Source: Sandaracinaceae bacterium
GTDB lineage: Bacteria; Myxococcota_A; Polyangia; Polyangiales; JAFGIB01
Reading direction: 5' to 3'
Assembly: GCA_017881055.1 (NCBI GenBank)
Contig: JADGRF010000013.1
Location: 75,201-139,200, forward strand
Length of the DNA stretch: 64,000 nt
Shown: one piece after another, positions 8,507 through 62,200 of the stretch
How positions within the stretch are numbered: the stretch's first letter is position 1
Layout of the letters: each line of letters opens with the position of its first letter
Notes under the pieces: model-generated
What the model saw: the letters and a program-made list of their open reading frames with translations, nothing else
What the model was told of the DNA's origin: nothing
The model's database searches: none
Translations under genes and position numbers: made by a program

Positions 8507-9856
8507 GTGGGCGACCAGACCAAGAAGCAATTCATGATTCCGGACGGCAGCGTCTGGGCGAACGCGTGGAAGATGACCGCCATGTTGGGCGGCGTCGGTA
8601 TCCTCGTTGCGCTCTACGGTGCGTTCCAGCAGCCCGAGCGCTTCGCGTACTCGTACCTGTACGGCTTCATCACCGTGCTCACTCTCTGGCTCGGCTCGGT
8701 GTTCTTCGTGCTGATTCAGCACCTGACCGGCGCCGGCTGGAGCGTTTCGGTGCGGCGTGCGGCGGAGTTCTTCGTCAGCGCTGCGTGGATCCTGCCGGTG
8801 TTGTTCGCGCCCGTCGCGCTCAACACGAGCACGCTCTATCACACGTGGTGGAACCACCCGGCGACGGAGCAAGGCGTTGCCCACGCGCAGGAGCACGAAG
8901 CTGCTGCGGAAGCCGGCGGCGATCGCGCGGGTGCAGAAGCAGCTGCACCCGAGGGCCATCACGGCTACGAGGGCGGCTCGGGTCCTTCCGAAGCGCACGA
9001 GTTGCTCGAGGACGCCAACATCGCGGGCAAGTCGGCGTACTTGAACCACGGCTTCTTCTACTTGCGCATGCTGCTGTACTTTGCCGTCTGGTTCTGGCTC
9101 GGCAGCCGCCTGTTCGGCTACTCGGCCGCGCAGGATGCGACCGGCGACAAGAGCTACACCGTGAAGCTGCAGAGCATGGCGCCAGTCGCCACGTTCGCAT
9201 TCGCGCTGTCGCTGACGTTCGCGGGCTTCGACTGGGTGATGTCGCTGCAGCCGGGCTGGTACTCGACCATGTTCGGCGTGCGCATCTTCGCGGCCTCGGC
9301 GGTCACGTCGTTCGCCGTGATCATCCTCGTGACGCTCGGCTGGAAGCGTGCGGGCCTGATCGGCAACGAGATCAACACCGAGCACTATCACGACCTGGGC
9401 AAGCTGATGTTCGGCTTCCTGATCTTCTGGGCGTACATCTCGTTCAGCGAGTTCTTCCTGATCTGGTACGCCGCGATCCCGGAAGAGACCGTGTACTACC
9501 ACCTGCGCTGGGACCACGACTCGTGGAAGATGATCAGCTGCTCGCTCGTAGCGCTGAAGTTCATCGTGCCGTTCTACTTGGTGATGTCGCGCAACGCGAA
9601 GCGCAACAACGGCTTGATCGGTCTCGGTGCCGGCTGGATCCTGGCCATGCACTTGGTCGAGATGTACTACTGGGTCATGCCGTACTACCGCCCGCACGAG
9701 GCGGTGCAGTGGAGCGGCGTGTGGATGGAAGTTGGCTGCGTCATGGCCACGCTCGGCGTGTTCCTGACCGTCGTGTTCCGCCGCATGCTGAAGCACCCCC
9801 TGATTGCGGTGGGTGATCCCCGCCTGTCGCGCGCGCTGAACTTCCAGAACATGTGA
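8507..9856 (+). CDS. actF: Alternative complex III membrane subunit ActF
   Basis: About 10 TM helices; DWVMSLQPGWYSTMFG, HDLGKLMFGF, IWYAAIPEET motifs. Confidence 0.93.
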   Translation: MGDQTKKQFMIPDGSVWANAWKMTAMLGGVGILVALYGAFQQPERFAYSYLYGFITVLTLWLGSVFFVLIQHLTGAGWSVSVRRAAEFFVSAAWILPVLFAPVALNTSTLYHTWWNHPATEQGVAHAQEHEAAAEAGGDRAGAEAAAPEGHHGYEGGSGPSEAHELLEDANIAGKSAYLNHGFFYLRMLLYFAVWFWLGSRLFGYSAAQDATGDKSYTVKLQSMAPVATFAFALSLTFAGFDWVMSLQPGWYSTMFGVRIFAASAVTSFAVIILVTLGWKRAGLIGNEINTEHYHDLGKLMFGFLIFWAYISFSEFFLIWYAAIPEETVYYHLRWDHDSWKMISCSLVALKFIVPFYLVMSRNAKRNNGLIGLGAGWILAMHLVEMYYWVMPYYRPHEAVQWSGVWMEVGCVMATLGVFLTVVFRRMLKHPLIAVGDPRLSRALNFQNM

Positions 9857-18691: not shown

Positions 18692-19258
18692 ATGAAACGA
18701 GTCGCAACAGCCATGACCGCTGCGTCCCAGTCCAGCGCAGGCACTGCGCCGGCGTTCTCCGAGGCCGAGCTCGCGGGCATCGAGAGCCAGCATCCGAACG
18801 GTCTGTCGACCCAAGAAGTGGTCGCGCTCTTCGCGGCGCACGGCGAACGCTTGAGCGAGGCGACCTTCCGCAAGTATGTGCAGCTCGGCCTTTTGCCGCG
18901 CAGCGTGCGCGTCGGCCGCAAGGGCAAGCATCGCGGCTCGCAGGGCCTGTACCCTTCGGCGATCGTTCGGCAGATCGAGCTGATCCGCGGGCTGATGGCC
19001 CAGGGCTACACGATCGTCGACATCCAGCGCGAGTTCGTCGGTGTGCGCACCGAGATCGACGCGCTCGCGCGCCAGCTCTCGCAGGTGCTGGTCACGCTCG
19101 ACGGCGCGCTCCGCGGACAGGCGGGCGAGTCAACTGACGAGATTCTTGGGCGCGCCTTGATCGACGCACGGCAAACTGCCGACGCGTTGGTCGAGAAGCT
19201 GCGCGCGATCGAACAACGACTGGCCATGCGCGCGCGCATGGCGCGGGCGGCGGTGTAG
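18692..19258 (+). CDS. MerR-like winged-HTH regulator
   Basis: TFRKYVQLGLLP..Y..IRGLMAQGYTIVDI pattern plus C-terminal coiled coil; ATG 18692 preferred because the 18629 start would contain the promoter. Confidence 0.7.
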   Translation: MKRVATAMTAASQSSAGTAPAFSEAELAGIESQHPNGLSTQEVVALFAAHGERLSEATFRKYVQLGLLPRSVRVGRKGKHRGSQGLYPSAIVRQIELIRGLMAQGYTIVDIQREFVGVRTEIDALARQLSQVLVTLDGALRGQAGESTDEILGRALIDARQTADALVEKLRAIEQRLAMRARMARAAV

Positions 19259-22091: not shown

Positions 22092-22541
22092 GTCGGAGCG
22101 GACCAGGTGATCGTCGGCTTCTTTAACTGTCCCGAGCTTCGGTTCGGGGGAAGAAAGAGCGGGAGGAAAGTCCGAGCTCCAAAGGACAGAATGCCGGTTA
22201 ATGGCCGGTGGGGGCGACCCCGAGGAAAGTGCCACAGAGAATGAACCGCCTTGGCCAATCACATACCCACCGAGCAGCCTTCGGCTCTCGGCGGACTACG
22301 GGGTTGCACAAGGTAAGGGTGAAAAGGCGAGGTAAGAGCTCACCGGGTCGGCGGTAACGTCGATCGCTAGGCAAACCCCATTCGGAGCAAGACGAAATAG
22401 GGAGGCGTTCGAGGGCGGTCCGCCCGAGCCTCCGGGTAGCGTCGCTCGAGGCGTGCGGTAACGCGCGTCCTAGATGAATGATCACCACCCGCATCCCGGC
22501 AACGGGTGCGGGAACAGGACTCGGCTTACGGTCCCTCCGAC
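22092..22541 (+). ncRNA. rnpB: RNase P RNA (type A), about 450 nt with extended P3 and P12
   Basis: GAGGAAAGTCCG, GGAAAGTGCCACAGA, GGTAAGGGTGAAA, GGCAAACCCC..GAGCAAG, ACAGGACTCGGCTTAC; ends pair (GTCGGAG/CTCCGAC). Confidence 0.96.
22261..22294 (+). repeat. Palindromic element (family 1) inside RNase P RNA P12
   Basis: ACATAC-CCACCGAG-C-AGCC-TTC-GGCT-CTCGGCGG. Confidence 0.8.
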
Positions 22542-22543
22542 CT

Positions 22544-29666: not shown

Positions 29667-30344
29667 ATGTGGGTTCTCGTGATTGGTTCGAGCGCGATCC
29701 TTCAGCGCGATGACGGCGGTGTTTCCGTGCTGAAAGAGCTGGGCTGCCGCGTGCAGGCGCATGACCTTTGGGACGACTTGGACGAGCCGGCGTTTCTGGA
29801 AGACCCGCCGGCCGCGATTCTGGTCGAAGCCCTGGATCAATTCGACGCGGGTCGTGCGGCGTTGATGCGTATTCGCGCCGTGGCGGCGTTGGCCGAGGTG
29901 CCTTGCCTCGTCGCGGTTTCCGTGGGTCAGGCGCAGCGTCTCGATGGCAACGACGGCTTCGACGATTTCGTCCTCGTTCCGTACGTGCCGGCCGAGTTGT
30001 ACATGCGGATTCGTCGCGCCGAGTGGCGCCGCAGCGAATTCGCCGGCAAAGAGCGGATCAAGATCGGCCCGATGTGCATCGATCTCGCGGGACACGAGGT
30101 TACGGTCGATGGCCGTGTGATCGATCTTACGCACCAGGAGTTCGCGCTGCTCAAGTTCCTGAGCCAGAACCGTGGTCGTGTTTTCAGTCGCGAGCAGCTG
30201 CTGAATCGCGTCTGGGGCGTGAACTACTACGGCGGCAGCCGTACGGTGGACATCCATGTTCGCCGCTTGCGCATGAAGCTCGGGCCGATGGCGGATCCGA
30301 TCGAAACGGTGCGTGGAGTCGGCTACAAAATGAAGGCCCCCTGA
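29667..30344 (+). CDS. OmpR-family winged-helix regulator with an atypical (pseudo-)receiver
   Basis: LTHQEFALL..RVFSREQLL..SRTVDIHVRRLRMKL..IETVRGVGYK; receiver lacks the acidic pair, phospho-Asp and Lys. Confidence 0.88.
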   Translation: MWVLVIGSSAILQRDDGGVSVLKELGCRVQAHDLWDDLDEPAFLEDPPAAILVEALDQFDAGRAALMRIRAVAALAEVPCLVAVSVGQAQRLDGNDGFDDFVLVPYVPAELYMRIRRAEWRRSEFAGKERIKIGPMCIDLAGHEVTVDGRVIDLTHQEFALLKFLSQNRGRVFSREQLLNRVWGVNYYGGSRTVDIHVRRLRMKLGPMADPIETVRGVGYKMKAP

Positions 30345-30488
30345 AAACGGGGCGCCTGGGCTGCGATTCGCGGCGCGATCCGCCTTCGTTTTCTGTGGTG
30401 CGTGGTCACGTACGGGAAGTACGTTCCGCGCGCTCCTCGAAAGCGAAGACGCCTCGCTTGCGACTCGCAGCTCAGGCATCCCCGTTTT
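30344..30488. repeat. Long imperfect hairpin element (family 2), copy A
   Basis: AAAACGGGG..GCTGCGA / TCGCAGC..CCCCGTTTT outer arms; CTTCGTTTTC/GAAAGCGAAG inner stem; tip GGTCACGTAC-GGGAA-GTACG (30404-30423). Confidence 0.75.
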
Positions 30489-30514
30489 CCTGAAATGGGC
30501 GAGGTCTTCTGCCG

Positions 30515-31579
30515 ATGACATCTCTTCACGCGCCCGAGCCTCACGCATTGCCGCTTGCGATCACCACGGGCGATCCGGGGGGTGTGGGGCCGGAGATTTC
30601 GTTGGTGGTCGCGCTTGAGGCTCGCCATCAGACTCCGCTGGTTTTGTTTGGGGATGCGCGGTGGCTTGCGCAGCGCGGGGGTGAGCTTGGGGCACGCGAC
30701 GCGGACTTTGTGCTTGTGCCGGTGCGCGGGCCGTACCAGGTGCCACTTGGAACGATTGCGCTCGCGGATGTCGACAGTCGCTGGGATGCGCAGGCTTTGA
30801 CGCATGCGCCGACGGCGGCGGGCGGTGAGGCGCAGCTGCGGGCTCTCGATGCGGCGATCGATGCGGCGTTGGCCAAGCACGTGCGAGGAATCGTGACGGC
30901 GCCCATGAGCAAGGGGGCGGTGAACCTCGCGGGGCACGATTTCATGGGCCATACGGAGCACCTGGCGCGGCGGGTCGGTCTGGCCGACGACGACGTCACG
31001 ATGATGTTTCTCGGTCCGAAGTTGCGCGTCGCGCTCGTGACCACCCACATCGCGATCGCGGATGCACCGAGTGAGATCACGCAGCCGCGGGTGGAGCGGG
31101 CGATCCTGCACCTCGGAGAGGCCTTGGCGCGCATGCACGCCGGGGCGCTCGCGCGCGGGCAGGCGCCGCATGTGCCGCTGCTGGTCGTCAGCGGCCTCAA
31201 CCCGCATGCGGGCGAGGGCGGCTTGTTCGGCGACGAAGAGCTCCGCGTGATCGAGCCCGCACTACGCTCGGCATCCAAGCGTGAGCCGTTCGTAAGCGGG
31301 CGAGTTCGTATCGCGGGCCCGATGCCGGCTGAGACCGCGTTTCGACAGGCGGCCTCTGGCAGCATCGATGCGATCGTCGCGATGCTCCACGATCAAGCCA
31401 CGATTGCGTCGAAGCTGCTCGATTGGGGCCAAGCCGTGAACGTGACGTGGGGACTGCCTTTCGTGCGCACGAGCGTCGATCACGGTGTGGCGTACGATGC
31501 CGCACGCGCCCACACGGCGGATCCCGAAGGTATGCGTTCTGCTTTGCACCTTGCACAGCGCTTGACCGCGAGCACGTGA
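30515..31579 (+). CDS. pdxA: 4-hydroxythreonine-4-phosphate dehydrogenase
   Basis: GDPGGVGPEI, TAPMSK, GHTE, GLNPHAGE, HDQ, GLPFVRTSVDHG motifs. Confidence 0.95.
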   Translation: MTSLHAPEPHALPLAITTGDPGGVGPEISLVVALEARHQTPLVLFGDARWLAQRGGELGARDADFVLVPVRGPYQVPLGTIALADVDSRWDAQALTHAPTAAGGEAQLRALDAAIDAALAKHVRGIVTAPMSKGAVNLAGHDFMGHTEHLARRVGLADDDVTMMFLGPKLRVALVTTHIAIADAPSEITQPRVERAILHLGEALARMHAGALARGQAPHVPLLVVSGLNPHAGEGGLFGDEELRVIEPALRSASKREPFVSGRVRIAGPMPAETAFRQAASGSIDAIVAMLHDQATIASKLLDWGQAVNVTWGLPFVRTSVDHGVAYDAARAHTADPEGMRSALHLAQRLTAST

Positions 31580-31624
31580 TTCCTGCGCGCCAGCGCCCAC
31601 GGCGTATGTGCAAAGATGTGTGCG

Positions 31625-31654
31625 TTGACGCGAGCGCGCGGTGCTCGTTAACCT
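31625..31654 (+). promoter_or_regulatory. Sigma70-type promoter for the small ORF
   Basis: TTGACG-18nt-TAACCT; AAGGA RBS before ATG 31690. Confidence 0.5.
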
Positions 31655-31689
31655 GTGAATCGATACGATCAATACGGAAGGAACCTGGG

Positions 31690-31839
31690 ATGAAATTTTG
31701 GGACGACTTGAGTCCGTTCGTGCGGCGTACGTTGATTGCGGCGGCGGTGTTTCTGGGCATCTTGCTCGTGGTGCGTCAGGTGGCCTCCACGCCTGCGGGC
31801 AACATCACGCACGTACGAGGAATCAACGCGAAGCCGTGA
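31690..31839 (+). CDS. Small single-TM membrane protein (49 aa)
   Basis: MKFWDDLSPFVRRTLIAAAVFLGILLVVRQ..; RBS and promoter-like sequence upstream. Confidence 0.65.
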   Translation: MKFWDDLSPFVRRTLIAAAVFLGILLVVRQVASTPAGNITHVRGINAKP

Positions 31840-31861
31840 GTGAGCGGGCGGGCTCTGCGTT

Positions 31862-33235
31862 TCAGCGCAGCTGAGTGCTTCCCGTCAGCGAGCGCTCGAA
31901 CCAGTCGCTGACGGCCACGCACGCTTCACGCACTTCGGCGCTGCCATCGAGCAAGAGCGCCAAGGGCCGCACCTCGACCGATTCAATTTCACCGCGCCGA
32001 TCGTTGACGAAAGCGGCTATGCGCAGCAGCACGTCACTGATCGCCTCGAGCCGTGCACGGCGCTCGGCGGGACTGTCGGCAAAGATCAGACTGCTGCCGG
32101 ACAAGCGTCGCAGCGAGCGTTCGATAGCGCGGTCGTTGGCGGGCAAGACGAGCACCGTGACGTCGTTTGCGGCGCGTCCGTGCGGGTCGGCGAAACCGAT
32201 CTCCATCGCCACGCGTCCGTGGGGCAGCGGCGTGGCGCGCAGCCCGAGCAACAGCGCGGCTTCGCTGGTCGCCGTCACCATCACGCCAAGCACACGCCGC
32301 TCGGTCTCGGCCGCCAGCGCACCGTCTTTTCCCAAGCGCTCTTCCGCTGCCGCCATCAGCTGCCGAAACGTGTCGCGCACTCGCGCTGCGTTGTCGACCA
32401 TGTCGATGCTCAAGTCGGGATGATCCCAGACCCGCAGATCGGGTGATGCGAGCGAGATGCGCACCGGATACCCGATGCGCGTCGCTTCGGCTGCAGCTCG
32501 CGACGAGCTCGCGCACAGTTCTTCGACCGGGAAGGGGATGCCGTAGGGTGCCAACGCGGCCTTGCTCGCGGGATCCGAGAGCGCGCGCCGCGGCCCGAAG
32601 ATCACGTCGAGCACTGCGCGCTCGTCGATGTCTTCCACGCTGGAGGAGAGCGGCGCCAACGTGCGTTCCGTGTTCGCAAGCGCAAGCAGCGCTTCCGCCA
32701 CGTCCGGTGTCTCGCCTAGCAGTGTGGTCGAGGCGTCCGGGTTTGCGGTCCAGCCGATGCGCGCGCCATCGAGCGGTACGAGCTGTCCGCCGGCCTTGGT
32801 GCCGGGCGTGATCACGGAGCGCAGGCGCGCGCGGTCGAGTGACGAGAGCGTGCGGGTCGAGGCCGCGTGCGCGTCGCGCGCTCCGGCACCGAGCAGCGCC
32901 AGTGCAGCCATCAGCGGCCGCAGCTCGGACACCGCGGTGATACCGAGATCGCCGGCGACGTCGAGCAGCGTGGCGCGCGTTGCGTGCGGCACGGGAAGGG
33001 CGAGTATCAGGGTGCAGGCGCGACCGCGCGCAGCGCTGGCGAGTTCGACGATCGCGTCGAGGCTTGGTGCGGTGCTGAGCGCCACGGCAATGGCTTCGTC
33101 GTGTGCCATGGCGCGTGCAGCGACCAGCAGAGGCTCCTGCTCGACGCTCGGTGCGACCTCGAGCCCGACCTGGGTCGCCGCGGCCAGACACTGCACCGCG
33201 AGGTCGGCGCTCTCACATAGGATTCGCCAGATCAT
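31862..33235 (-). CDS. Acyl-CoA synthetase (ADP-forming)-like protein with a degenerate ATP-grasp domain
   Basis: KAALAPYGIP..IGYPVRI..SPD and EIESVEVRPL resemble the ATP-grasp_5 fold; the HKSD motif is replaced by VWDH. Confidence 0.6.
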   Translation of the reverse strand: MIWRILCESADLAVQCLAAATQVGLEVAPSVEQEPLLVAARAMAHDEAIAVALSTAPSLDAIVELASAARGRACTLILALPVPHATRATLLDVAGDLGITAVSELRPLMAALALLGAGARDAHAASTRTLSSLDRARLRSVITPGTKAGGQLVPLDGARIGWTANPDASTTLLGETPDVAEALLALANTERTLAPLSSSVEDIDERAVLDVIFGPRRALSDPASKAALAPYGIPFPVEELCASSSRAAAEATRIGYPVRISLASPDLRVWDHPDLSIDMVDNAARVRDTFRQLMAAAEERLGKDGALAAETERRVLGVMVTATSEAALLLGLRATPLPHGRVAMEIGFADPHGRAANDVTVLVLPANDRAIERSLRRLSGSSLIFADSPAERRARLEAISDVLLRIAAFVNDRRGEIESVEVRPLALLLDGSAEVREACVAVSDWFERSLTGSTQLR

Positions 33236-33348
33236 GTCTCTAGGCCGCCTCCGCGGGGGCAGGTTGCGTATCGTAGCCCGCGCGCTGCTGGGTCGCGAAT
33301 TCGCGCTGCGCTGCCAACCAGTGCTGCGTCTGGTGTAGCCTGCCGACC

Positions 33349-34200
33349 ATGCGGAGCCTTGGCGAATGCGCAGTCGCTCTCATGCTGCTCGCCGGCACGC
33401 CGGGTGCCACGCGGGCCGAGGCACCGGCCGTGACCGGATCGCCAGCCCAAGGTCTGTCGCAAGCTCGCGAGCATTTCGCGCTGGGCTCGCGCGCTTTCGA
33501 CAACCACGACTACCGCACCGCCATCCGTGAGCTCGAGCTGGCCGCGGAGCTTGCACCGAGCGCGGAGCTCTGGTTCGACATTGGCCGCTCGCACGAGGAG
33601 CTCGCGGAGTACGAGCTCGCCGAAGCTGCGTACGAGCGCTACCTCCGGGATCGCGTCGATGCCAGCGACGAGGCCGACGTACGTGCGCGCATCGCACGCA
33701 TGGCGGAGCTCGCAGCGCGGGAGCGTCAGACGGCAAACAAGCCGCGTCTCATCGAGCTTGGCAGCTTGAAAGTGCACGTCGATCGCCCGGGGGCTTTGAT
33801 CCTGATGGACGGCCGCTTGCTCGGCCGCGCCCCGCTCGAGGATCCTTTGTCGCTTGGAGCCGGCCGCTACCGCTTGGACGTGATCGCTCCGGGTCAGATC
33901 CCGTTCCGCTCCGAGGTCGAGATCGCGCCCGGGGTGCTGACGTCCGCGTACGCGCAGTCGTTGCCCCTCGGCCGCGATCGCGAGAGCACGAAGCCGCGAG
34001 TTTGGACCTGGCTGGCAGCTGGGCTCGCGGCTGGCGGGGCGATCGCGTTCGGCGCGTCGACCGCAGCGATTCTCGCGCGCGAGCACGACGGTGATCGCGC
34101 CGGTGCGCGTCGCTGGCAGCAGCGGGCCGACGTCGCGCTGGGCGGTACGGTTCTGTGTGCGTTGTCGGCGACGCTGCTTTACTTCGTCGAGGCCAACTGA
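33349..34200 (+). CDS. TPR + PEGA domain membrane protein
   Basis: Signal peptide, TPR (HFALGSRAF..YERYL), PEGA (GALILMDGRLLGRAPL..G.YRLDV), C-terminal TM segments. Confidence 0.82.
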   Translation: MRSLGECAVALMLLAGTPGATRAEAPAVTGSPAQGLSQAREHFALGSRAFDNHDYRTAIRELELAAELAPSAELWFDIGRSHEELAEYELAEAAYERYLRDRVDASDEADVRARIARMAELAARERQTANKPRLIELGSLKVHVDRPGALILMDGRLLGRAPLEDPLSLGAGRYRLDVIAPGQIPFRSEVEIAPGVLTSAYAQSLPLGRDRESTKPRVWTWLAAGLAAGGAIAFGASTAAILAREHDGDRAGARRWQQRADVALGGTVLCALSATLLYFVEAN

Positions 34201-34365
34201 CGGGCGCTCTCGCAACGACCGACGCGAACGCACCGTTGATCTTGACCCTGCCGCGGCGTTCGGGAGATAGTTCTGCGGGCTCGGAAGTATCTTCAGCAGG
34301 TCGATTGCGCGCCTGTTCTGCTGTGCTGTGCGACGGTCTGTAGACGTCTTAAAGGAGACGCCCTC

Positions 34366-35868
34366 ATGCGGCTGAAGATTATCGTTGGAAACCTCGCAGT
34401 CGTCGTGCTCCTCGGGCTCGTTGCCTATTTCACGGTGACGAGTCAGCTGCGCTCGAAGCTTAGCGATCAACTCGAAGCCGACATCGACAACGACCGAGTG
34501 CTGTTCGACCGCTCGTTTCGGCTGTCGGCCCTGGAGTTCGTCGATCGGGTCGTCGATCGCGCCAGCGCGCGCCAGATGCGCGACATCTACGGCGGACTCG
34601 ACCTCGACAGTCGCCGCACTCGCGCGTACGAGGCAGCCGAAGCCACGCACGCGTGGTTCGGGGATCCTGCCCGAGGCGGCCGTGGTGCTCCGGATATCGT
34701 CGTCGTCGTCGACGAGACCGGCAAAACGATCGCCCGTGACGGGGCGCGCAACGTCATGTTCGGCAAGGCCTTGAGCCCGGCGATCCCGGCGTTGGGCCGT
34801 GCCCTTCAGAGCGGCGACGCCGCGCACGACATCTGGCTCGAAGGCGAACAGAACAAGGTCCTGCAGACGGCGATCGCGCCGATTCGCTCCGAGACAGGCA
34901 CGATCCTGGGCGCTCTGGTCGTGGGCTATGACTTGTCCAACGGTCTTGCGGCGAGCGAAGCCAAGGTCTTGGGCCGCGATGTTGCCTTCGTAGTCGACGG
35001 CAAGGTCTACAGCTCCTCGCTCGACGGCGGCGCTGCTCGGGACCTGAAAGACTTTCTGTTCGGTGGCGCTGGCGCCGCGACCACCAAAGCGGTGCTCGCC
35101 GGCCAGGTTGCCTCGACGCAGTCCTGGCGCGTAGCCCTCGGCGGTGCCGACTACACCGGCGTCACCTCGCGACTCCCGATGGCCCCCTCGCTGCCCGTCG
35201 CGTTCGCGGTCTTGGGCAATCGCACCGAGAAGGCCCAGCTCGCGTCGGTCGCCAACGTGATCTTGATCATGCTCGTGCTCGGCGGCCTGCTGGTCGTCGG
35301 TTACGGCTTCGTGATCGGCACCTCGATCATGCGAGCGATCGAGGAAATCGAGGAAGGGATCCTCGCGGTCATCAACGGCAAGACGGATCTGCGCCTCGAG
35401 ACCGACAGCGCCGAGCTGGGCGGTCTTGCATATCGCATCAACCAGTTGCTCAACGTCTTCACGGGGACGGAAGAGGGCACCGAAGACGACGAGGGCAAGA
35501 TCTCGGTGCCGCCAGCTGCAAGCGCGAGTCACTGGAAGGAAGCCGAGTTCAGCGACGCCGCTGCTGGCGGCGGTGCTGCTCCGCAGGCTGCGAGCCCCAC
35601 GGCCGAAGAAGTCATCGACGATCCCGCCATCGCCTCGCGATTGGCCGCAGAGCCCGAAGATGCGTACAACGATCGCGTCTACCGCGAGTACGCTGCGGCA
35701 AAGCAAGCCGTCGGCGAGAACGTCTCGAACATTCCGAAGGACCGCTTCTGCCAGCGTCTCAAGGGCCGCGGCGATGCGCTCGTGCAGAAGCACGGTTGCC
35801 GCATGGTTCGGTTCCAGGTACATACGGCCGGCAATCAGGTCACGCTTCAGCCGGTACTGATCCGGTAG
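34366..35868 (+). CDS. MXAN_5187-family-like membrane protein (TM, periplasmic Cache-like region, TM, HAMP, C-terminal domain)
   Basis: Two TM helices, HAMP (ELGGLAYRINQL), C-terminal YREYAAAK..F..L......H.C..VRFQV pattern; family name from recall. Confidence 0.65.
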   Translation: MRLKIIVGNLAVVVLLGLVAYFTVTSQLRSKLSDQLEADIDNDRVLFDRSFRLSALEFVDRVVDRASARQMRDIYGGLDLDSRRTRAYEAAEATHAWFGDPARGGRGAPDIVVVVDETGKTIARDGARNVMFGKALSPAIPALGRALQSGDAAHDIWLEGEQNKVLQTAIAPIRSETGTILGALVVGYDLSNGLAASEAKVLGRDVAFVVDGKVYSSSLDGGAARDLKDFLFGGAGAATTKAVLAGQVASTQSWRVALGGADYTGVTSRLPMAPSLPVAFAVLGNRTEKAQLASVANVILIMLVLGGLLVVGYGFVIGTSIMRAIEEIEEGILAVINGKTDLRLETDSAELGGLAYRINQLLNVFTGTEEGTEDDEGKISVPPAASASHWKEAEFSDAAAGGGAAPQAASPTAEEVIDDPAIASRLAAEPEDAYNDRVYREYAAAKQAVGENVSNIPKDRFCQRLKGRGDALVQKHGCRMVRFQVHTAGNQVTLQPVLIR

Positions 35869-35934
35869 TGCCCGCGGACCGGTTCGCGGACCGGTTTTCG
35901 GGACGTGAACGCTGGCTGCTAGGGCGTACGGCGC

Positions 35935-36657
35935 ATGGCGTTTTTAGGCATCTTCGGTAAGAAGTCCGAGTCCGGGCTGGGCAAGCACCCAGAGCGCGTT
36001 GCGAACAAGCGCGCGCAGGCCTACGACCGCTGGGAGTCTATCCAGGCCCTTGGCCGACTGCAGACGAAAGAAGCTGTCGAAGCCTTGCTTCCGCGCTTCA
36101 CGTTCTACGTCGAGCCCAGCATCACCGACCAAGAAGAGAAGGACGCCGCGTTCAGCGCGATCGTCGATTCGGGCGCCGTCGCCATCGAGCCCGTGTGCGC
36201 CTTCCTACGGCGCGTCGACTCGATCTCGTGGCCCGTGAAGATGCTCGACCAGCTCCTGCCCAGCGACATCGTCGTGGCGCACCTGATCGAGCTCCTGTCC
36301 TCCATGGACACGGAGTACGAGCGCGACCCCGAGTGCAAGATTCAAGTGCTCACCACGCTCTCGGAACGCCAGGACGCCCGCGTCGCTGCCGCTGCCGCCC
36401 GCTTCCTCTCCGACACCAACGAGACCGCCCGCTTCGCGGCCGTCGCCGCCTTGCTGGCCCAAGAGGGCGCCGTAGCCGCTCACTCGGCGGCGCTCATCGA
36501 CTGCCTGTGCAACGAAGAAAGCGTGCGCGTCCGCAACCGTATCCTCGAAGCCCTCGCGACCGCCGCCATCAGCGTCACCGCCCGCGAAGAAGCCGTGAAG
36601 GCCCGCCTAACCGCCGCCTACACCCTCTCGAAGTCCGGCATCCCCCAAAAGCGTTGA
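35935..36657 (+). CDS. HEAT-repeat protein
   Basis: Helical repeats (ETARFAAVAAL, ESVRVRNRILEAL). Confidence 0.72.
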   Translation: MAFLGIFGKKSESGLGKHPERVANKRAQAYDRWESIQALGRLQTKEAVEALLPRFTFYVEPSITDQEEKDAAFSAIVDSGAVAIEPVCAFLRRVDSISWPVKMLDQLLPSDIVVAHLIELLSSMDTEYERDPECKIQVLTTLSERQDARVAAAAARFLSDTNETARFAAVAALLAQEGAVAAHSAALIDCLCNEESVRVRNRILEALATAAISVTAREEAVKARLTAAYTLSKSGIPQKR

Positions 36658-36665
36658 CCTAACAC

Positions 36666-36784
36666 GCGCGCCCGCTTTGCCGCTGAGAGCGGCTTACGGC
36701 CTCGCGCGGGTCGGTCACGTACAGGAAGTACGCTCCCTCGCCGCGCTGCGGGCGCGCTCGCTCTCAGCGCCAAATCGAGCGCGC
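36666..36784. repeat. Long imperfect hairpin element (family 2), copy B
   Basis: GCGCGCCCGCTTTGCCGCTGAGAGCG / CGCTCTCAGCGCCAAATCGAGCGCGC arms; tip GGTCACGTAC-AGGAA-GTACG (36713-36732). Confidence 0.75.
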
Positions 36785-36825
36785 TTGACCACCAATGACG
36801 GTCCGGTCGATGCGCCCGCTCGCGA

Positions 36826-46988: not shown

Positions 46989-49900
46989 ATGGGACGAAAG
47001 CCATTTTCGGATCTGCTCGCGGCCTGCGTGCTCGCGCTCGGCGTCTCCGCCGCTGCGTCGGCCGCGCCGCACGGCGTGAATACGGCGTCCGCCGCGCCGA
47101 AGAAGAACAGCAGCAAAGCCAGCAGCGGCAAGGCGAGCTCCAGCTCCTCGTCTGGCAGCAGTGGCAGTAGCGCTGCGGCTCCCGGCGAGAACGAGTCCGA
47201 CGCCGATGAAAGCAAGGACGTCTCGGCCACGATGGCGGGCAAGGGCGACATCTGCATCGCGCCCGACGCGCCGAAGCGTGTCGCTGCGTGCCCGAAGAAC
47301 ACGCCCAAGGCGCAAAAGGGCAAGGGCGGCGCGCCCAGCTCGAAGCTGCAGGAGGCCAAGCGTAAGGTCGAGCAGCCGAAGGGCTTCAAGGCGACCGGTC
47401 CGTCGATCGAGCTCGACGTCGCCACGCTGCGCAACAAGGAACAGACCGAGCGCAAGGCAAAGGATTTGTTGTTGCGCGAGATTCAGGTCACCGGACGCCT
47501 GATCAAGAACACCCGCGTCAACGATGCGCGTCGCCCGGACTTCCTCTTGCGCTTGGCGGAGGGTTACTTCGAGCTCGTGCAGGTCGCGACGACCGACGTG
47601 CGCAAGATGGACGAGCCGATCCATCAGGCGTGTCAGGCCAAGAAGAGCAAGGGCGACTGCAGCTCGCTCATGAAGAAGCAGAAGGACGCCGAGACTGCGT
47701 TGCAGGAAGTGCGTGAGAAGAACATCACGACACTCGCGACGCTGGTGAAGGATCACCCCGACTACAAGAAGATGGACGAAGTCCTCTTCTCGCTCGGCTT
47801 CTCGCTCGACGAGATGAAGCAGTTCGATCGTGCGCGGCAGGTGTACCACCGCCTGATCAAGAGCTACCCGCAGAGCGATTACATCCCGAACGCGTACCTG
47901 TCGTTCGCGGAGTACTACTTCCAGCAGGGCGACATGAAGGCCGCCCAGCAGTTTTACCAGAAGGTCACGGAGATCCCGCCGGAGAAGAACAAGGTCTACG
48001 GCTACGCGATCTACAAGCAGGCTTGGTGTTACTACAACCTCGAAGACTTCAAGTCGTCGTTGCAGAGCTTCATCGAGACGATCGAATTCGGCACCAAGAA
48101 CCCCGAATCGCCGAACGTCGAGAACCTCGTCAAGCAGTCGCGTAAAGAGCTCGTGATGCCGTACGCGCAGATCGGCAGCCCCGAACGCGCGCTCGACTTC
48201 TTCAAGCGCTACGCAAAGGACGACGATCAGGCCTACGGCATGTTCGAGACCCTCGGCGAGCTGTACTTCGACACGGGCAAGTGGCCCGAGGTCATCGCGG
48301 TCTATCACGGGCTGATGGCCGAGAAGTCGAGCGACGACAAGGTCTGCTTCTGGCAGACCCGCGTCACCAACGCGATCGTGTCGTCGAAGCCGAAGGCTCA
48401 GCAGGTCACCGAAGTCGAACGCATGATCGACCTCTGGGAGACGTACAACGGCCAGGCGACTCACAAGGAAGACGCGAAGAAGATCTGCAAGCAGGCAGCT
48501 GCCTCGGTGCTGATCGACCTTGCTACGGCGTGGCACCGAGAAGCGATCGGTACCGATACGCAGCCGGGCACGAACGACCGCGGCACGATGGAGCTGGCGT
48601 CGAAGCTCTACCGGCTGTTGCTCAAGAGCTTCCCCGACATGGAGTCGATGGAGTTCCCGGACATCGACAAGCGCGACTGGCCGACCGAGTACAAGGTCGC
48701 GTACTTCTACGCCGAGCTTCTCTGGAAGATGGAGAACTGGGGCGAGTGCGGACCCGCATTCGACAAGGTGCTCGAGGTCAATCCGCAGGGCGAGTTCACC
48801 TCCGACGCCGCGTACGCTGCCGTGCTTTGCTACAACAAGCAGTACGCCAGCGCGTACGCAGCGGACGAGAAGAGCGTCCGTGGCAAGTCGGCCGACAAGG
48901 GCAGCGGCAAGGGTAAGAAGGGCAAGAAGGAGTCCGACGCCGACAAGGCGGCGGAGTTCAAGGCTCGCGAGTTCACCCAGACCGAGCAGGGCATGCTGAA
49001 CGCCTTCCAGCGTTACGTGTGCTTCGTGCCGGATAGCGAAGACTTGCTGCAGATCAAGTATCGCCGCGCGCGCGTCTACTACGAGACCAACCACTTCGAA
49101 GAAGCATCGGTCTTGTTCAAGGAGATTGCGTTCAACGGCAAGGACACGGACCTCGGCGTCTACGCTGCCAACCTGTACATGGACTCGCTGAACATGATCG
49201 GCTCGTACAGCGATCCGAAGCGGCCCAAGTGCTACGACGAGATGAACGACAACATCGAGCCGCTGTTCGGTTTGTATTGTGCGACGCCGGAGAAGCACGA
49301 ATCGAACGCCGAGCTCTGCAACGTGCTCGAGCAGTTGCGCTGCGACTTGTTGCGTAAGAAGGCGGAAGCGCTTCAGAGCAACAAGGAGTTCAAGGCGGCC
49401 GCGACGGTGTACGTCTCGATCTTCCGTAAGTTTCGCGAGTGCGGAAAGCTGGACGAGGTTCTGTTCAACTCGTCTATCAACTTCGAAGCGGCGCGCCTTC
49501 TGGGTCGCGCGATCAAGGTTCGTAAGGTCTTGATCGACAAGTACCCGAACAGCGAGTGGTCGAAGCGCGCGTTGTACTTGATTGGCGCGAACTTCCACGC
49601 TCTGGCCATCTACGACACCGCAGCGGACTACTACGAGCAGTTCGCGACGAAGTATCCGAGCGAAGACGGCAAGACCTGTTCGGACGCCGAGAAGTCGGCC
49701 GGCACGTGCACCGTCGCGCATGAAGCGTTGCAGAACGCGATCTTCTTCCGCCTCGGTTTGGGCGACGAGGAGAAAGCCGTCGAAGACGCGAAGACCTACG
49801 AGCGCAACTACTCGCACAAGTTCCCGCGCGAAACGTCGCAAGTGAAGTACTCGCTGGGCTCGATCTACGAGCGGCAGCAGGACTGGAACAAGGTCATCAC

Positions 49901-59200: not shown

Positions 59201-62200
59201 AACAGCCCGTCGACCGATCAGCGCGTCGAGCTGCTGCACCGCATGGCGGAGCTGTACGAGATCGCGCTCGACGACGCAGGCGGTGCGTTCAAGACGTTCG
59301 CGCGCGCGCTCGCTGAGGATCCTACCAATCCCACCACGCGTGATCAGCTCGATCGCCTAGGCATCAGCGCTGGCTCGCACGAAGCGCTGGCGCAGGTTTA
59401 CGAAGCGCAGGTGCAGGGCGCGACGGATCCCGCCGTGCTGGTCTCGTTGCACAGCAAAGCGGCTCAGATCCGTGAAGAGTCGCTCGGCGATGCCAATGGT
59501 GCGATCGGTCATTACCGGCGCGTGCTGGAGGTCGACGCGGCGAACCTCGATGCGGCGAGCGCGCTCGAACGCCTCTACCAGATGGCGGAGCGCTACGACG
59601 ACTTGGCGTTGATCTACCTCACGAAGTCGGCGCTGCTGACGGCGTCCGATGAGCGGAAGGACTATCTGTTCCGCGCCGGTGCGATCTACGAAGAAGTGCT
59701 GGAGCTTCCCGACGCAGCGATCGAAGTGTATCGGCGCGTGCTCGAGATCGAGGAGGATGATCTCCGCGCTCTCGACAAGCTGATCCAGCTGCACCTCAAG
59801 CTCTCGCAGTGGGAGAAGCTGCTCGGCGTGTATGGCCAGAAGGCCGACGTCGTTTCGGATCCCGATGAAAAGAAGGCGCTCTACCTGCAGATCGGTGGCG
59901 TCTACGAGCGCGAGCTGAAGCAGACCGAGAAGGCGATCGAGACGTATCAACGCGTGGTCGAGCTCGACCCCGACGACATAGCGGCGCTCGGACGCTTGGA
60001 TGCGTTGTTCCTCGCCAGTGATCGCTCCGAAGATTTGCTTTCGATCTTGGAGCGTGAAGCAGAGCTCGTGAGCGAGCCGCTGCAGGCGATCGACTTCCGC
60101 TATCGCATCGGTGAGCTGCACGAGCGTAAGCTGAACGACGCGTTCCGTGCCGTGGATGTGTACCGCGAGATCCTCGACGTAGTGCCCGATCACGCGGCCA
60201 CGCTGGCTGCGCTCGAGCGCATGATCGACGAAGAGCGCGAGCCAGTGGCGGCTGCGTGGGTGCTGGAGCCGATCTACCGCGCGTCGGTCGATTCGGCGCG
60301 CTTGTCGCGTTCGCTCGAAGTGCTGATCACCCACGAGGAAGATCCGGTCCGCAAGGTCGAGCTGCTCCATCAGGTGGCCGAGATCTACGAGGTACACCTC
60401 GAAGAGGGGCGTAAGGCGTTCGGCGCGTTCGCGCGTGCGTTCCCGGTCGACAGTCAGAACGAGAACACGCTGGCTGCGCTCGAGCGCTTGGCTGAGCGGT
60501 TGAACGCGTGGGGTGACCTCGCGACGCTCTACGACAAAGAGATCACGAGGCTGCGCGCCGACTCGCCGGGCATGGCGATCGATCTGGCGCTACGGCTTGC
60601 ACAGATCTTCGAAGTGCAGCTCGGCGATGTCGATGCCGCGATTGCTCGCTATCGCATCGTGTTCGAGACCGATCCTGCGCACGCGCAGGCCGTCGAGGCG
60701 CTCGAGCGCTTATACGAGGCGAGCGAGCGTTGGGAGCCGTTGGCCGAGATCCTCGAGCGCAAGGTCGAGATTGCGGGCAGCCCGGACGAGCTTCTGGCGA
60801 TTCACTTCAAGCTCGGTCAGCTGCTCGAGCATCGGCTCGGCAAGGTCGAGAAAGCAGTCGATCGCTATCGCGAGATTCTCGCGGCCGCACCTGAGCACGA
60901 AGAGGCGCTGCGCGCGCTCGAAGGCTTGTTTGGGAAGGGCGTGTTGCCGACCGAGATCGGCGAGATCTTAGAGCCGCTCTATCGCATGCAGGAGGCCTGG
61001 GATCGCCTGGTCGGTGTGCACGAAGTCGAGCTGCGCTCGCTCGCCGACAATAAGCAACGCGTGCTGATGATGCACCGAATAGCGGAGATCGCGGAGGAGC
61101 GCGCGAACGATCACGCGCTGGCGTTCTCGTGGATTCAGAAGGCGTTGATGGAAGATGCGACCAGCGATCATTCCATCTCGGAAGCAGAGCGCCTCGCTCC
61201 CATCGTGTCAACTGGAACAGCCTCCGGCTCTCCAGACAACGGCTTCGCGGTGCTGGCGAACACGTACGCGGTGATCGCGGAACAGCATGCCGAGAAGGAC
61301 GTTCGCATCGCGATCGCCAAGCGCCTGGCGCGTGTGTATGGCGAAGAGCTGCAGGACGTGGCGCGCGCCGAAGAGGCGTATCGCTACGTGATCGCGATGG
61401 ATGATCGCGACGAGGACGTGCTGATCGCGCTCGACAACATCTACACGGATCACGGTGCCGGCGAGGCGCTGGCCGAGGTGCTGAAGAAGCGCGTCGCTGC
61501 GGCCTCGGACGCCCGTGAGAAGGTGGAGCTCAGCCACCGGCTGGGTAACGTGCTGTGGAACGAGTGTCGTCGCACGGACGAGGCGATCGAAGTCTATCGC
61601 CACGTGCTCGCGAAGCTCGACGCACAGCACGAGGACACGCTGCACGCGCTGCAGAACGTGTACACGGTCACGCAGCAGTGGCCGCAGCTGTTCGAGGTCT
61701 ACGAGAAGGAGCTCGATGTGGTCGTGGGTGACTCGGCGCAGGCCGAGATCCTGGGACGCATGGCGGTGCTCGCGGCCGGCAAGCTCAATAACTACGAGCG
61801 TGCCGTCGAGCTCCTGCGCAAGGTGCTCGACTTGCTCGGCGAAGATCACGAAGCGCTCAATGCGCTCGGCAACATCTACGCGCAGCAAGAGAACTGGACA
61901 GATCTCGTCGACGTGTTGGAACGCGAAGTCGCGGTCGCAGAGACCGACGAGATGCGCATCCAGATTTACGGCGACTTGGGCCGGATCTGGTACGAGAAGC
62001 TGCATCGTGATCGCAACGCGCTCGAGAGCTGGGAGCGCGTGCTCGACATCGATCCGAGCAACACGGATGCGTTGTTCGCGATCGCCGCGATCCATCGTGC
62101 CGCGGCCTCGTGGAACGACCTCGTGGACACGTTGCACAGGTTGGTCGACGTAGGCGCCGGTTCGATGTTTGTGGAGCAGCCTTCGGCTCTCCGCGGCGGG

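Follow-up and report, generated by a model that had tools for sequence, protein, structure and literature searches.

Two rod-shaped hairpins behind gene ends

The 64,000-nucleotide stretch of DNA analyzed here (the window, C270:75201-139200) is part of the genome of a Sandaracinaceae bacterium (G000), the assembly of which comprises 5.88 Mb in 341 contigs at 66% G+C. This genome is a metagenome bin, 94% complete, and the relatives with which it was compared are also metagenome bins. Two long, rod-shaped hairpins located at the ends of plus-strand genes are the subject of this report; they belong to two repeat families, designated A and B. The features of the two sites are as follows.

29667-30344, plus strand: gene for an OmpR-type response regulator; its TGA stop is at 30342-30344 and the family B element begins at the next base
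30345-30488, plus strand: family B rod element, consisting of AAAA, a stem of ~70 bp with internal loops, and TTTT (nhmmer E 1.8e-38)
30393-30439, plus strand: near-invariant inner boxes of family B, left arm approximately CTGYGGTGCGTGCTCA and right arm approximately GCGCGCTCCTCG, defined by invariant alignment columns
30404-30427, plus strand: tip module of the B copy, GGTCACGTACGGGAAGTACGTTCC, with stem CGTAC/GTACG at 30409-30413 and 30419-30423 and loop GGGAA at 30414-30418
30489-30514, plus strand: extra spacer between the family B element and the start of pdxA (30515)
35935-36657, plus strand: gene for a HEAT-repeat protein; its TGA stop is at 36655-36657, 5 nt ahead of the family A stem (36663)
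36663-36787, plus strand: family A rod element (nhmmer E 1.5e-26)
36689-36705, plus strand: left core box of family A, GCGGCTTACGGCCTCGC (family consensus GCGGCTTACGTCCTCGC), with little or no variation among 31 copies of this genome
36713-36736, plus strand: tip module of the A copy, GGTCACGTACAGGAAGTACGCTCC
36745-36761, plus strand: right core box of family A, GCTGCGGGCGCGCTCGC, placed opposite the left box by folding; the pairing contains bulges and a conserved U.G pair

Each region folds as a single rod, with a free energy (dG) of -95.8 kcal/mol for 30344-30490 (z -9.3) and -72.7 kcal/mol for 36655-36795 (z -3.95), and in neither case did any of 200 dinucleotide shuffles fold as well. A first-pass annotation, made from the letters of the window, had described two long hairpins here, in the same orientation and each beginning shortly after a plus-strand stop codon, and both statements proved correct. 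CGTAC-N5-GTACG is present at both apices (30409-30423 and 36718-36732) against a chance expectation of 0.15 matches, and the shared tip, GGTCACGTAC(G/A)GGAAGTACG(T/C)TCC, is identical at 22 of 24 positions (30404-30427 versus 36713-36736). The remainder of the two elements aligns weakly, with a global score of 92 versus 61.7 +/- 6.6 for shuffles.

Copy number and distribution of the two families

A profile search of the whole assembly with nhmmer returned 54 family A matches and 43 family B matches. Full-length copies at E <= 1e-15 number ~50 for family A (~125 nt) and ~27 for family B (~155 nt), giving ~80 elements in all, so that the two copies counted earlier are those of the window only. 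Within each family homology spans the entire length (nhmmer E 1e-16 to 1e-42); the earlier statement that only the tip is held in common therefore applies between the families but not within them. Internally deleted and shortened copies of both families are also present in the assembly. Some family A copies form inverted pairs 100-360 nt apart, resembling REPIN doublets (C294, 28979-29103 with 29356-29200; C214, 47560-47686 with 47964-47855), and a further inverted family A pair is found in this genome at C228:18564-18687 with 19051-19157.

Family A is present in many genomes of uncultured Polyangiales/Sandaracinaceae. Rod elements were detected in each of the five congeners, in several further genera of their family and in no fewer than two other families of the order. 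Named records which contain the element are bins of uncultured Polyangiales, Sandaracinaceae and other Myxococcota from groundwater, lakes, permafrost and sediments; a few matching records are labelled Coxiellaceae, Sericytochromatia or Pseudomonadota, labels which are given as recorded and may reflect mislabelled bins or misbinned contigs. The element-rich genomes (G000, G002, G003, G004 and G009) gave 13-31 BLAST matches each. In the relatives G011, G001 and G004 many matches are located within 100 bases of a contig end; the repeats break short-read assemblies of this clade, and the copy numbers in these three genomes are therefore underestimates. Neither element reached the gathering threshold of an Rfam family in a scan of the window, the sole overlap at E values up to 10 being a spurious plant microRNA model (26.9 bits versus a threshold of 79). 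A literature search for myxobacterial repeats of comparable type returned nothing relevant.

Conserved core and covarying stems

With respect to family B, an alignment of 17 copies had 94.5% of cells paired and double changes in 25 of 50 pairs, with a covariation score of 0.317 as compared with 0.04-0.08 for slid partners; on all five measures, none of 500 shuffles reached the observed value. The tip stem (helix 3) covaries as well, with double changes in four of its five pairs, and a U.G pair within the inner boxes (pair 67-96) was unchanged in 17 of 17 copies. For family A, double changes were observed in 24 of 34 pairs among 31 copies of this genome. When the family A model was applied to 80 loci of named metagenome-assembled genomes (93 matches), 94.6% of cells were paired and 26 of 34 pairs were double-changed, counts which lean towards the model since its structure served as the template for the alignment. 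The covariation score across these loci was 0.587 versus 0.06-0.09 for slid partners, and none of 500 shuffles reached the observed value on four of five measures; the fifth, further pair types, gave no excess over shuffles (454 of 500 reached it). All four Watson-Crick combinations were used at most variable pairs. The rod structure is kept up by compensatory change. The first-pass annotation had described structured repeats with arms covarying around a short constant part, and had staked this on further copies with paired arms; covariation is present in both families, copies are abundant and their arms pair far beyond the controls.

The constant part itself is not the tip, as had been supposed. 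Across genera the family A core lies in mid-stem, GCTTACGTCCTCG opposite CTGCGGGCGCGCTCG, while the outer stem, inner stem and tip vary but stay paired. In the fold the 5' arm of the core, GCGGCTTACGTCCTCG, faces the 3' arm, CTGCGGGCGCGCTCGC, with fixed bulges and a U.G pair, and the motif can be written as GCTTNCGTCCTCG ... CTGYGGGCGCGCTCG. In all, ~30 nt of core are constant across several families of the order and ~45 other base pairs change freely and stay paired. The 80 cross-genome loci were picked by a pattern made from the core, and core invariance within that set is therefore circular. The same core was found in two independent sets, the copies of this genome recovered by profile (31 of 31) and the copies from other genera and families recovered by BLAST, which itself seeds on conserved words; in neither of these family A sets are stems or tips related. 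In sequence, conservation is confined to a short core motif, which lies mid-stem in family A and in the inner boxes in family B. As the conserved boxes come to lie opposite each other only once the hairpin forms, the earlier suggestion of a conserved motif recognized in folded form fits these observations.

The 24-nt tip is common only within this genome; across genomes it is not conserved and differs widely. Its stem varies with compensation (CGTAC/GTACG, CGGAC/GTCCG, TGCAC/GTGCA, GCTAC/GTAGC and others), and two variants occur in both families. One and the same four-substitution variant (CATGCAC...GTGCA) is found in A and in B, indicating that the families exchange or share the tip. The tip was also considered as an independent mini-element and this was rejected, the module TCA-stem-loop-stem-CT being found only inside A and B copies. 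A third CGTAC...GTACG match in the window (8646-8663, CGTACTCGTACCTGTACG) has neither family context, TCA prefix nor arms and looks like a chance occurrence. The conserved boxes of all copies contain TCCTCG (window 36700-36705 and 30433-30439), which resembles the anti-Shine-Dalgarno core by sequence only; it is in the 5' arm in family A (ACGTCCTCG) and in the 3' arm in family B (GCTCCTCGAA).

The make-up of the variable pairs bears on how the pairing is maintained. Watson-Crick pairs account for 91% of them, G.U pairs for 1.6% and A.C pairs for 3.1%, and wobble intermediates are scarce whichever strand is considered; runs of 4-10 neighboring pairs can differ as a block from copy to copy while remaining fully complementary; and many of the double changes are transversions which have no wobble path. 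In addition, in 47 of 50 A copies and 17 of 27 B copies the better fold is that of the minus strand and not that of the mRNA-sense strand. The first three of these features favor an explanation in which the arms are not selected for pairing at all, and long DNA palindromes correct themselves through hairpin-templated strand switching at replication, which copies arm onto arm. We regard this as a real although minority possibility. Such correction should not spare the conserved asymmetric bulges, the internal loops or the U.G pair, none of which has been corrected away in any copy, and the copy-specific stem of an element behind a tRNA-Ser gene (described below) is stable between two species. 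It would moreover explain the pairing only, and not placement, core or spread, and so complements rather than replaces an interpretation of the rods as mobile repeats. Hairpin-templated arm correction may contribute to the pairing.

Placement of the elements at gene ends

For most A and B copies a long same-strand open reading frame (ORF) with high G+C at third codon positions ends at one fixed element coordinate. Most copies start 0-8 nt past a stop codon or 0-2 nt past a tRNA 3' end: in family B the stop T(G/A)A stands directly before AACAG, and in family A the stop falls 0-8 nt before the first CGCG of the stem. The stop triplet belongs to the gene and not to the element, as copies without such an ORF are also without the triplet; the exception is subfamily A1, which brings its own CTGA. 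Three B copies begin 0-2 nt after the 3' ends of tRNA-Ser(GCT), tRNA-Gln and tRNA-Ala, and in the relative G004 a B copy lies flush behind tRNA-Arg(ACG). Among copies from other genomes, a stop triplet was present within the first 14 nt in 53 of 76, with a peak at positions 5-7, as compared with 35 of 76 in the reverse-complement control. The elements lie almost only in 3' gene flanks, a few bases from a stop codon or tRNA 3' end.

When flanking genes were scored for orientation, leaving out nine copies with an unassigned flank, 29 spacers were convergent, 34 tandem and 6 divergent, an enrichment between convergent genes and a depletion between divergent ones. In the tandem set 23 copies were sense and 11 antisense to transcription. 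Orientation followed GC skew (replication strand) only weakly, 32 to 19, and dependence on the replication strand was set aside for this reason. These placements argue against the dismissal of a terminator role in the first-pass annotation, as does the T-tract of family B. The claim that no T-tract is present fails for the first element, which has AAAA at 30345-30348 and TTTT at 30485-30488, and holds for family A. As an intrinsic terminator layout family B fits, ending CTGTTT(T) with a matching 5' A-tract, and family A, ending CGCGTTG, does not. Placement behind genes also fits a terminator, while the stems are far longer than usual; a simple terminator scan is blind to stems of this length.

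A start at the stop codon of the preceding ORF is also a property of integron attC sites, which are imperfect palindromes with conserved boxes and a variable paired part, recognized in a structure- and strand-dependent manner. The rods share with them the position at or beside a stop codon, the combination of variable paired part, conserved boxes and unpaired bases, and a strand which folds better than the other. An origin as attC-like recombination sites of integron-type cassettes, with the single strand recombining in folded form, is nevertheless scarcely credible, and the arrangement in the genome already contradicts it. Copies occur one at a time, scattered behind core genes of conserved synteny (response regulator-pdxA, tRNAs, coaX) and not in cassette arrays beside an integrase, their ends do not fit RYYYAAC/GTTRRRY, and the constant part of family A is in mid-stem and not at the base.

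Gain, loss and copying of elements

In seven relatives the spacer orthologous to the A-copy locus was without the element, and several of them have short hairpins of the ordinary terminator-like type there. At the B-copy locus the regulator stop and pdxA start overlap by 4 nt (GTGA/ATGA) in five relatives, with nothing in between, whereas in this genome the element and ~26 nt of extra spacer are found exactly behind the unchanged stop. The C-terminus of the response regulator (KMKAP*) is the same as in relatives without the element, and PdxA has a new, longer N-terminus with ~8 extra residues as compared with the relatives. In the spacer before pdxA a second CCTGAAA (30489-30495) repeats 30340-30346. 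A 7-codon mini-ORF, ATGGGCGAGGTCTTCTGCCGATGA (window 30489-30517), starts after the TGA contained in this repeat (30491-30493), and its stop codon shares bases with the pdxA ATG, an arrangement which may represent translational coupling rebuilt after insertion. Insertion into pre-existing hairpins was considered as a source of the copy-specific outer stems and was rejected for this genome: the B site in relatives is a 4-nt overlap without a hairpin, and no 'empty' outer hairpins were found in this genome apart from two deletion derivatives.

Two pairs of A copies, the members of which lie at unrelated loci between unrelated flanks, reach identities of 98.4% and 97.6%, which indicates copying within this lineage. 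One B copy behind tRNA-Ser is shared by G000 and G001 at the same position; the two are 90% identical, although the DNA on both sides is unalignable, and their differences include two pair changes with full compensation, T-A to C-G and G-C to C-G. The copy-specific inner stem is kept in both species. Three orthologous loci which were examined are empty in most congeners. The elements are therefore gained and lost between species and have recently been copied within this genome.

The tRNA-Ser copy, more conserved than its surroundings and with compensatory changes, is what would be expected if the rods were host-functional structured RNAs of the 3' untranslated region, serving as protein-binding or RNase-processing sites or as specialized terminators and kept by selection locus by locus, with their repeat character secondary. 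On the question of RNA versus DNA level the evidence is mixed. An RNA role is also favored by the conservation of the family A core across several families of the order, by the U.G pair on the mRNA-sense strand which never varies in either family, by placement behind gene ends and by the A/T tracts of family B. A purely RNA-level explanation is opposed by the predominance of Watson-Crick pairs and rarity of G.U pairs in the variable helices, by the better folding of the antisense strand in most copies, and by the third of tandem-context copies (11 of 34) which are antisense to transcription. The empty orthologous loci, the near-identical copies at unrelated loci, which show selfish copying, and the lack of a matching Rfam family also speak against such an RNA, and we consider this explanation rather unlikely.

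Relation to known palindromic repeats

We consider it probable that the rods are two related families of small, non-coding, non-autonomous palindromic repeats of the ERIC/REP/BIME/Correia/SPRITE-like kind, specific to uncultured Polyangiales/Sandaracinaceae-like myxobacteria, which are mobile and are tolerated or used as 3'-end hairpins. Of the characters of miniature inverted-repeat transposable elements (MITEs), terminal inverted repeats, a length below 300 bp and a lack of coding sequence are all present, the whole element being an imperfect palindrome. The 'MITE-like element' of the first-pass annotation was in this respect in the right neighborhood. Our reading is of a lineage-specific variant of the ERIC/REP/MITE kind, selfish palindromes that survive where the hairpin harms least or helps, that is, at the very gene end.

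ERIC elements (~127-bp imperfect palindromes) are similar in size, in forming one long imperfect hairpin, in being non-coding and present in tens to hundreds of copies, and in occupying transcribed spacers and 3' flanks across genera. The myxobacterial rods differ in having no detectable target duplication, no sequence relation and hosts of another phylum, and in their short invariant core, covarying stems and tip, and flush position at gene ends. ERIC sequences have been classed with MITEs (Delihas 2011, PMC3184786), and copies of this type have terminal inverted repeats, target duplications and flanking TA (PMC3184786). REP/BIME sequences and REPINs are likewise extragenic palindromes downstream of genes, with occasional inverted doublets and no target duplication. 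REPs are much shorter (20-40 nt) and are accompanied by a RAYT gene. The myxobacterial elements are 120-155 nt in length, and no Y1_Tnp gene was found in five element-rich genomes. The REP hairpin is thought to be recognized on single-stranded DNA (Bertels and Rainey 2011, PMC3116915). Correia-type elements (named in PMC3184786) are mobile repeats that have the appearance or the function of terminators or RNA-processing hairpins at the ends of genes; the terminal repeats of Correia elements measure 26 bp (Correia et al. 1986, cited in PMC3184786). They differ from the myxobacterial rods in hosts and sequences, and the rods are longer, with a T-tract in family B only. TA duplications are a further property of Correia elements.

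In the mechanism we propose, the core, which becomes one motif only once the arms pair, would be the recognition site of the copying machinery or of a host protein, and the remainder of the element would only need to pair. Once inserted, the element would be transcribed with the upstream gene and act as a 3'-end hairpin, either a terminator or an exonuclease barrier; the A-tract/stem/T-tract form of family B would correspond to a bidirectional intrinsic terminator layout. Insertion flush with the stop would leave the neighboring genes nearly undisturbed because the hairpin brings its own two ends together, so that stop and downstream sequence would stay spatially adjacent. Such limited disturbance would explain why copies survive and their pairing is kept, even in the translationally coupled regulator-pdxA operon.

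A number of observations weigh against the interpretation as mobile repeats. No target-site duplication was detected, the best flanking direct repeat averaging 3.3 nt versus 3.2 nt in controls for family A and 3.2 nt versus 2.9 nt for family B, where controls were shuffled left/right pairings, and the boundaries of near-identical copies had no duplication. No parent element was found between half elements, only short internally deleted or truncated copies and no insertion-sequence-sized stretch. The assembly contains no multi-copy insertion sequence (repeats >300 bp at high identity), and the one IS630-like and few IS4/IS5-like (DDE) transposase loci have no ends in common with the elements. 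The flush placement is not explained by the model since stop codons and tRNA ends are not features that a DNA transposase can recognize; it calls for either strong selection or a target preference that has escaped notice. A T-tract is lacking in family A. The rarity of wobble among variable pairs and the better folds of the minus strand fit complementarity at the DNA level better than selection on mRNA only.

Two candidate target-site duplications were rejected. The CCTGAAA repeat at the window B copy is not family-wide, and the TTGACC repeat at the window A copy belongs to the right end of a subfamily common to three copies. An autonomous partner between paired copies in other genomes was also sought and rejected: the intervening genes were ordinary, e.g., for type III pantothenate kinase-like and Ser/Thr kinase-like proteins (named by eye from translations), and none was transposase-like.

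The lack of target-site duplication is what would be predicted of substrates of a Y1/HUH single-strand transposase (REP/REPIN with RAYT, or an IS200/IS605-derived palindrome), where the hairpin is recognized on single-stranded DNA and inserted 3' of a short target. The first-pass annotation had named a HUH nuclease substrate as one possibility and suggested a look for nearby Y1/HUH transposase genes. The left end of the rods always abuts the flank in one orientation, the bulges and mismatches of the family A core exist only in the fold, and the few inverted doublets (C294 and C214) resemble REPINs. The enzyme and the ends do not agree with this. Y1_Tnp (PF01797) had no match in G000 or the four other element-rich genomes (G002, G003, G004 and G009), an absence which is weak evidence since these are metagenome bins, yet it is present in G006 and G012, both without the element. 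The rods are 3-5 times the length of REPs, their ends are AAAC...GTTT (B) and CGCG...CGCG (A) with no conserved GTAG-like 5' tetranucleotide, their left neighbor is any stop codon or tRNA end and no single fixed target word, and their orientation tracks GC skew weakly (32 to 19). Substrates of this kind are, in our view, very improbable. No IS110-type enzymes were found in these metagenome bins.

Flush placement, including that of recent copies and at tRNA ends, together with an invariant core, is not explained by any known transposition chemistry. A more speculative alternative, which we hold to be unlikely, is a new class of hairpin-shaped mobile DNA to which the rods would belong. An unrecognized structure-specific enzyme would copy the element in the form of a folded single strand, reading the mid-stem core, and would join it behind gene ends without target duplication. 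Copying as a folded strand would leave the arms free as long as they pair, and would explain a core that is near-invariant across the order while all else covaries.

Small palindromic repeats are common in bacteria, and for most of them movement and persistence are not understood. The rods interpreted here as mobile repeats are an unusually clean case, with a constant core, stems that are free but paired, insertion points at gene ends and none of the usual transposases. If the core were the handle of a new copying enzyme, a mechanism would be added to those of mobile elements; if it were a host protein's site on 3' hairpins, there would be a lineage-wide layer of 3'-end control in myxobacteria. 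In practical terms, the repeats break metagenome assemblies of this clade and could serve to mark gene 3' ends for annotation.

Composite and repeated arrangements

Some A and B copies of this genome, all outside the window, contain nested mini-palindromes of 30-40 nt at recurring positions. In family A the motif is GGGTTGCGGGTTCGCGTTCGCGAACCCGAAGACAGG after CTTACGTC; in family B the motifs are GCTTGGTTTGGGGTTGGGGCCCCGAACCCCAACCCGG in the left arm and GCGGTTTGCGGGTCGTGCTTGCACGACCCGAAGACAAGG in the right arm. The copies are as follows.

Family A copies with nested mini-palindromes: C22:30153-30311, C203:182-339, C13:10401-10546 and 60057-60216, C129:4832-4969, C51:42374-42531
Family B copies with nested mini-palindromes: C168:11268-11410, C104:11402-11552, C194:8601-8772, C27:1398-1568, C47:8735-8907, C294:1885-2056

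These are separate tiny repeat families which have invaded the rods as side branches. Composite copies have subsequently been copied whole, those of C27 and C47 being 95.5% identical. In one family A subfamily a shared second motif, GTCGAGAGG(G)TGAGCGCGCGCGGCCCTTCGGGCGCG, which is a short GC hairpin capped by a TTCG loop, comes after several copies (C81 at ~48970-49010, C266 at ~35594-35630 and C234 at ~72554-72590 in this genome), which suggests a further repeated 3' module.

In another genome (G015:C18, locus L006, 1336-1900) a 143-bp unit containing one family A copy is present as four head-to-tail repeats. The array is located just upstream of a minus-strand gene, the product of which has a prepilin-like start (MSAKPRRGTAGFTLLEVMVAVAIL). 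Within the window, bacterial RNase P RNA class A at 22095-22542 (286.8 bits) was the sole Rfam family above threshold.

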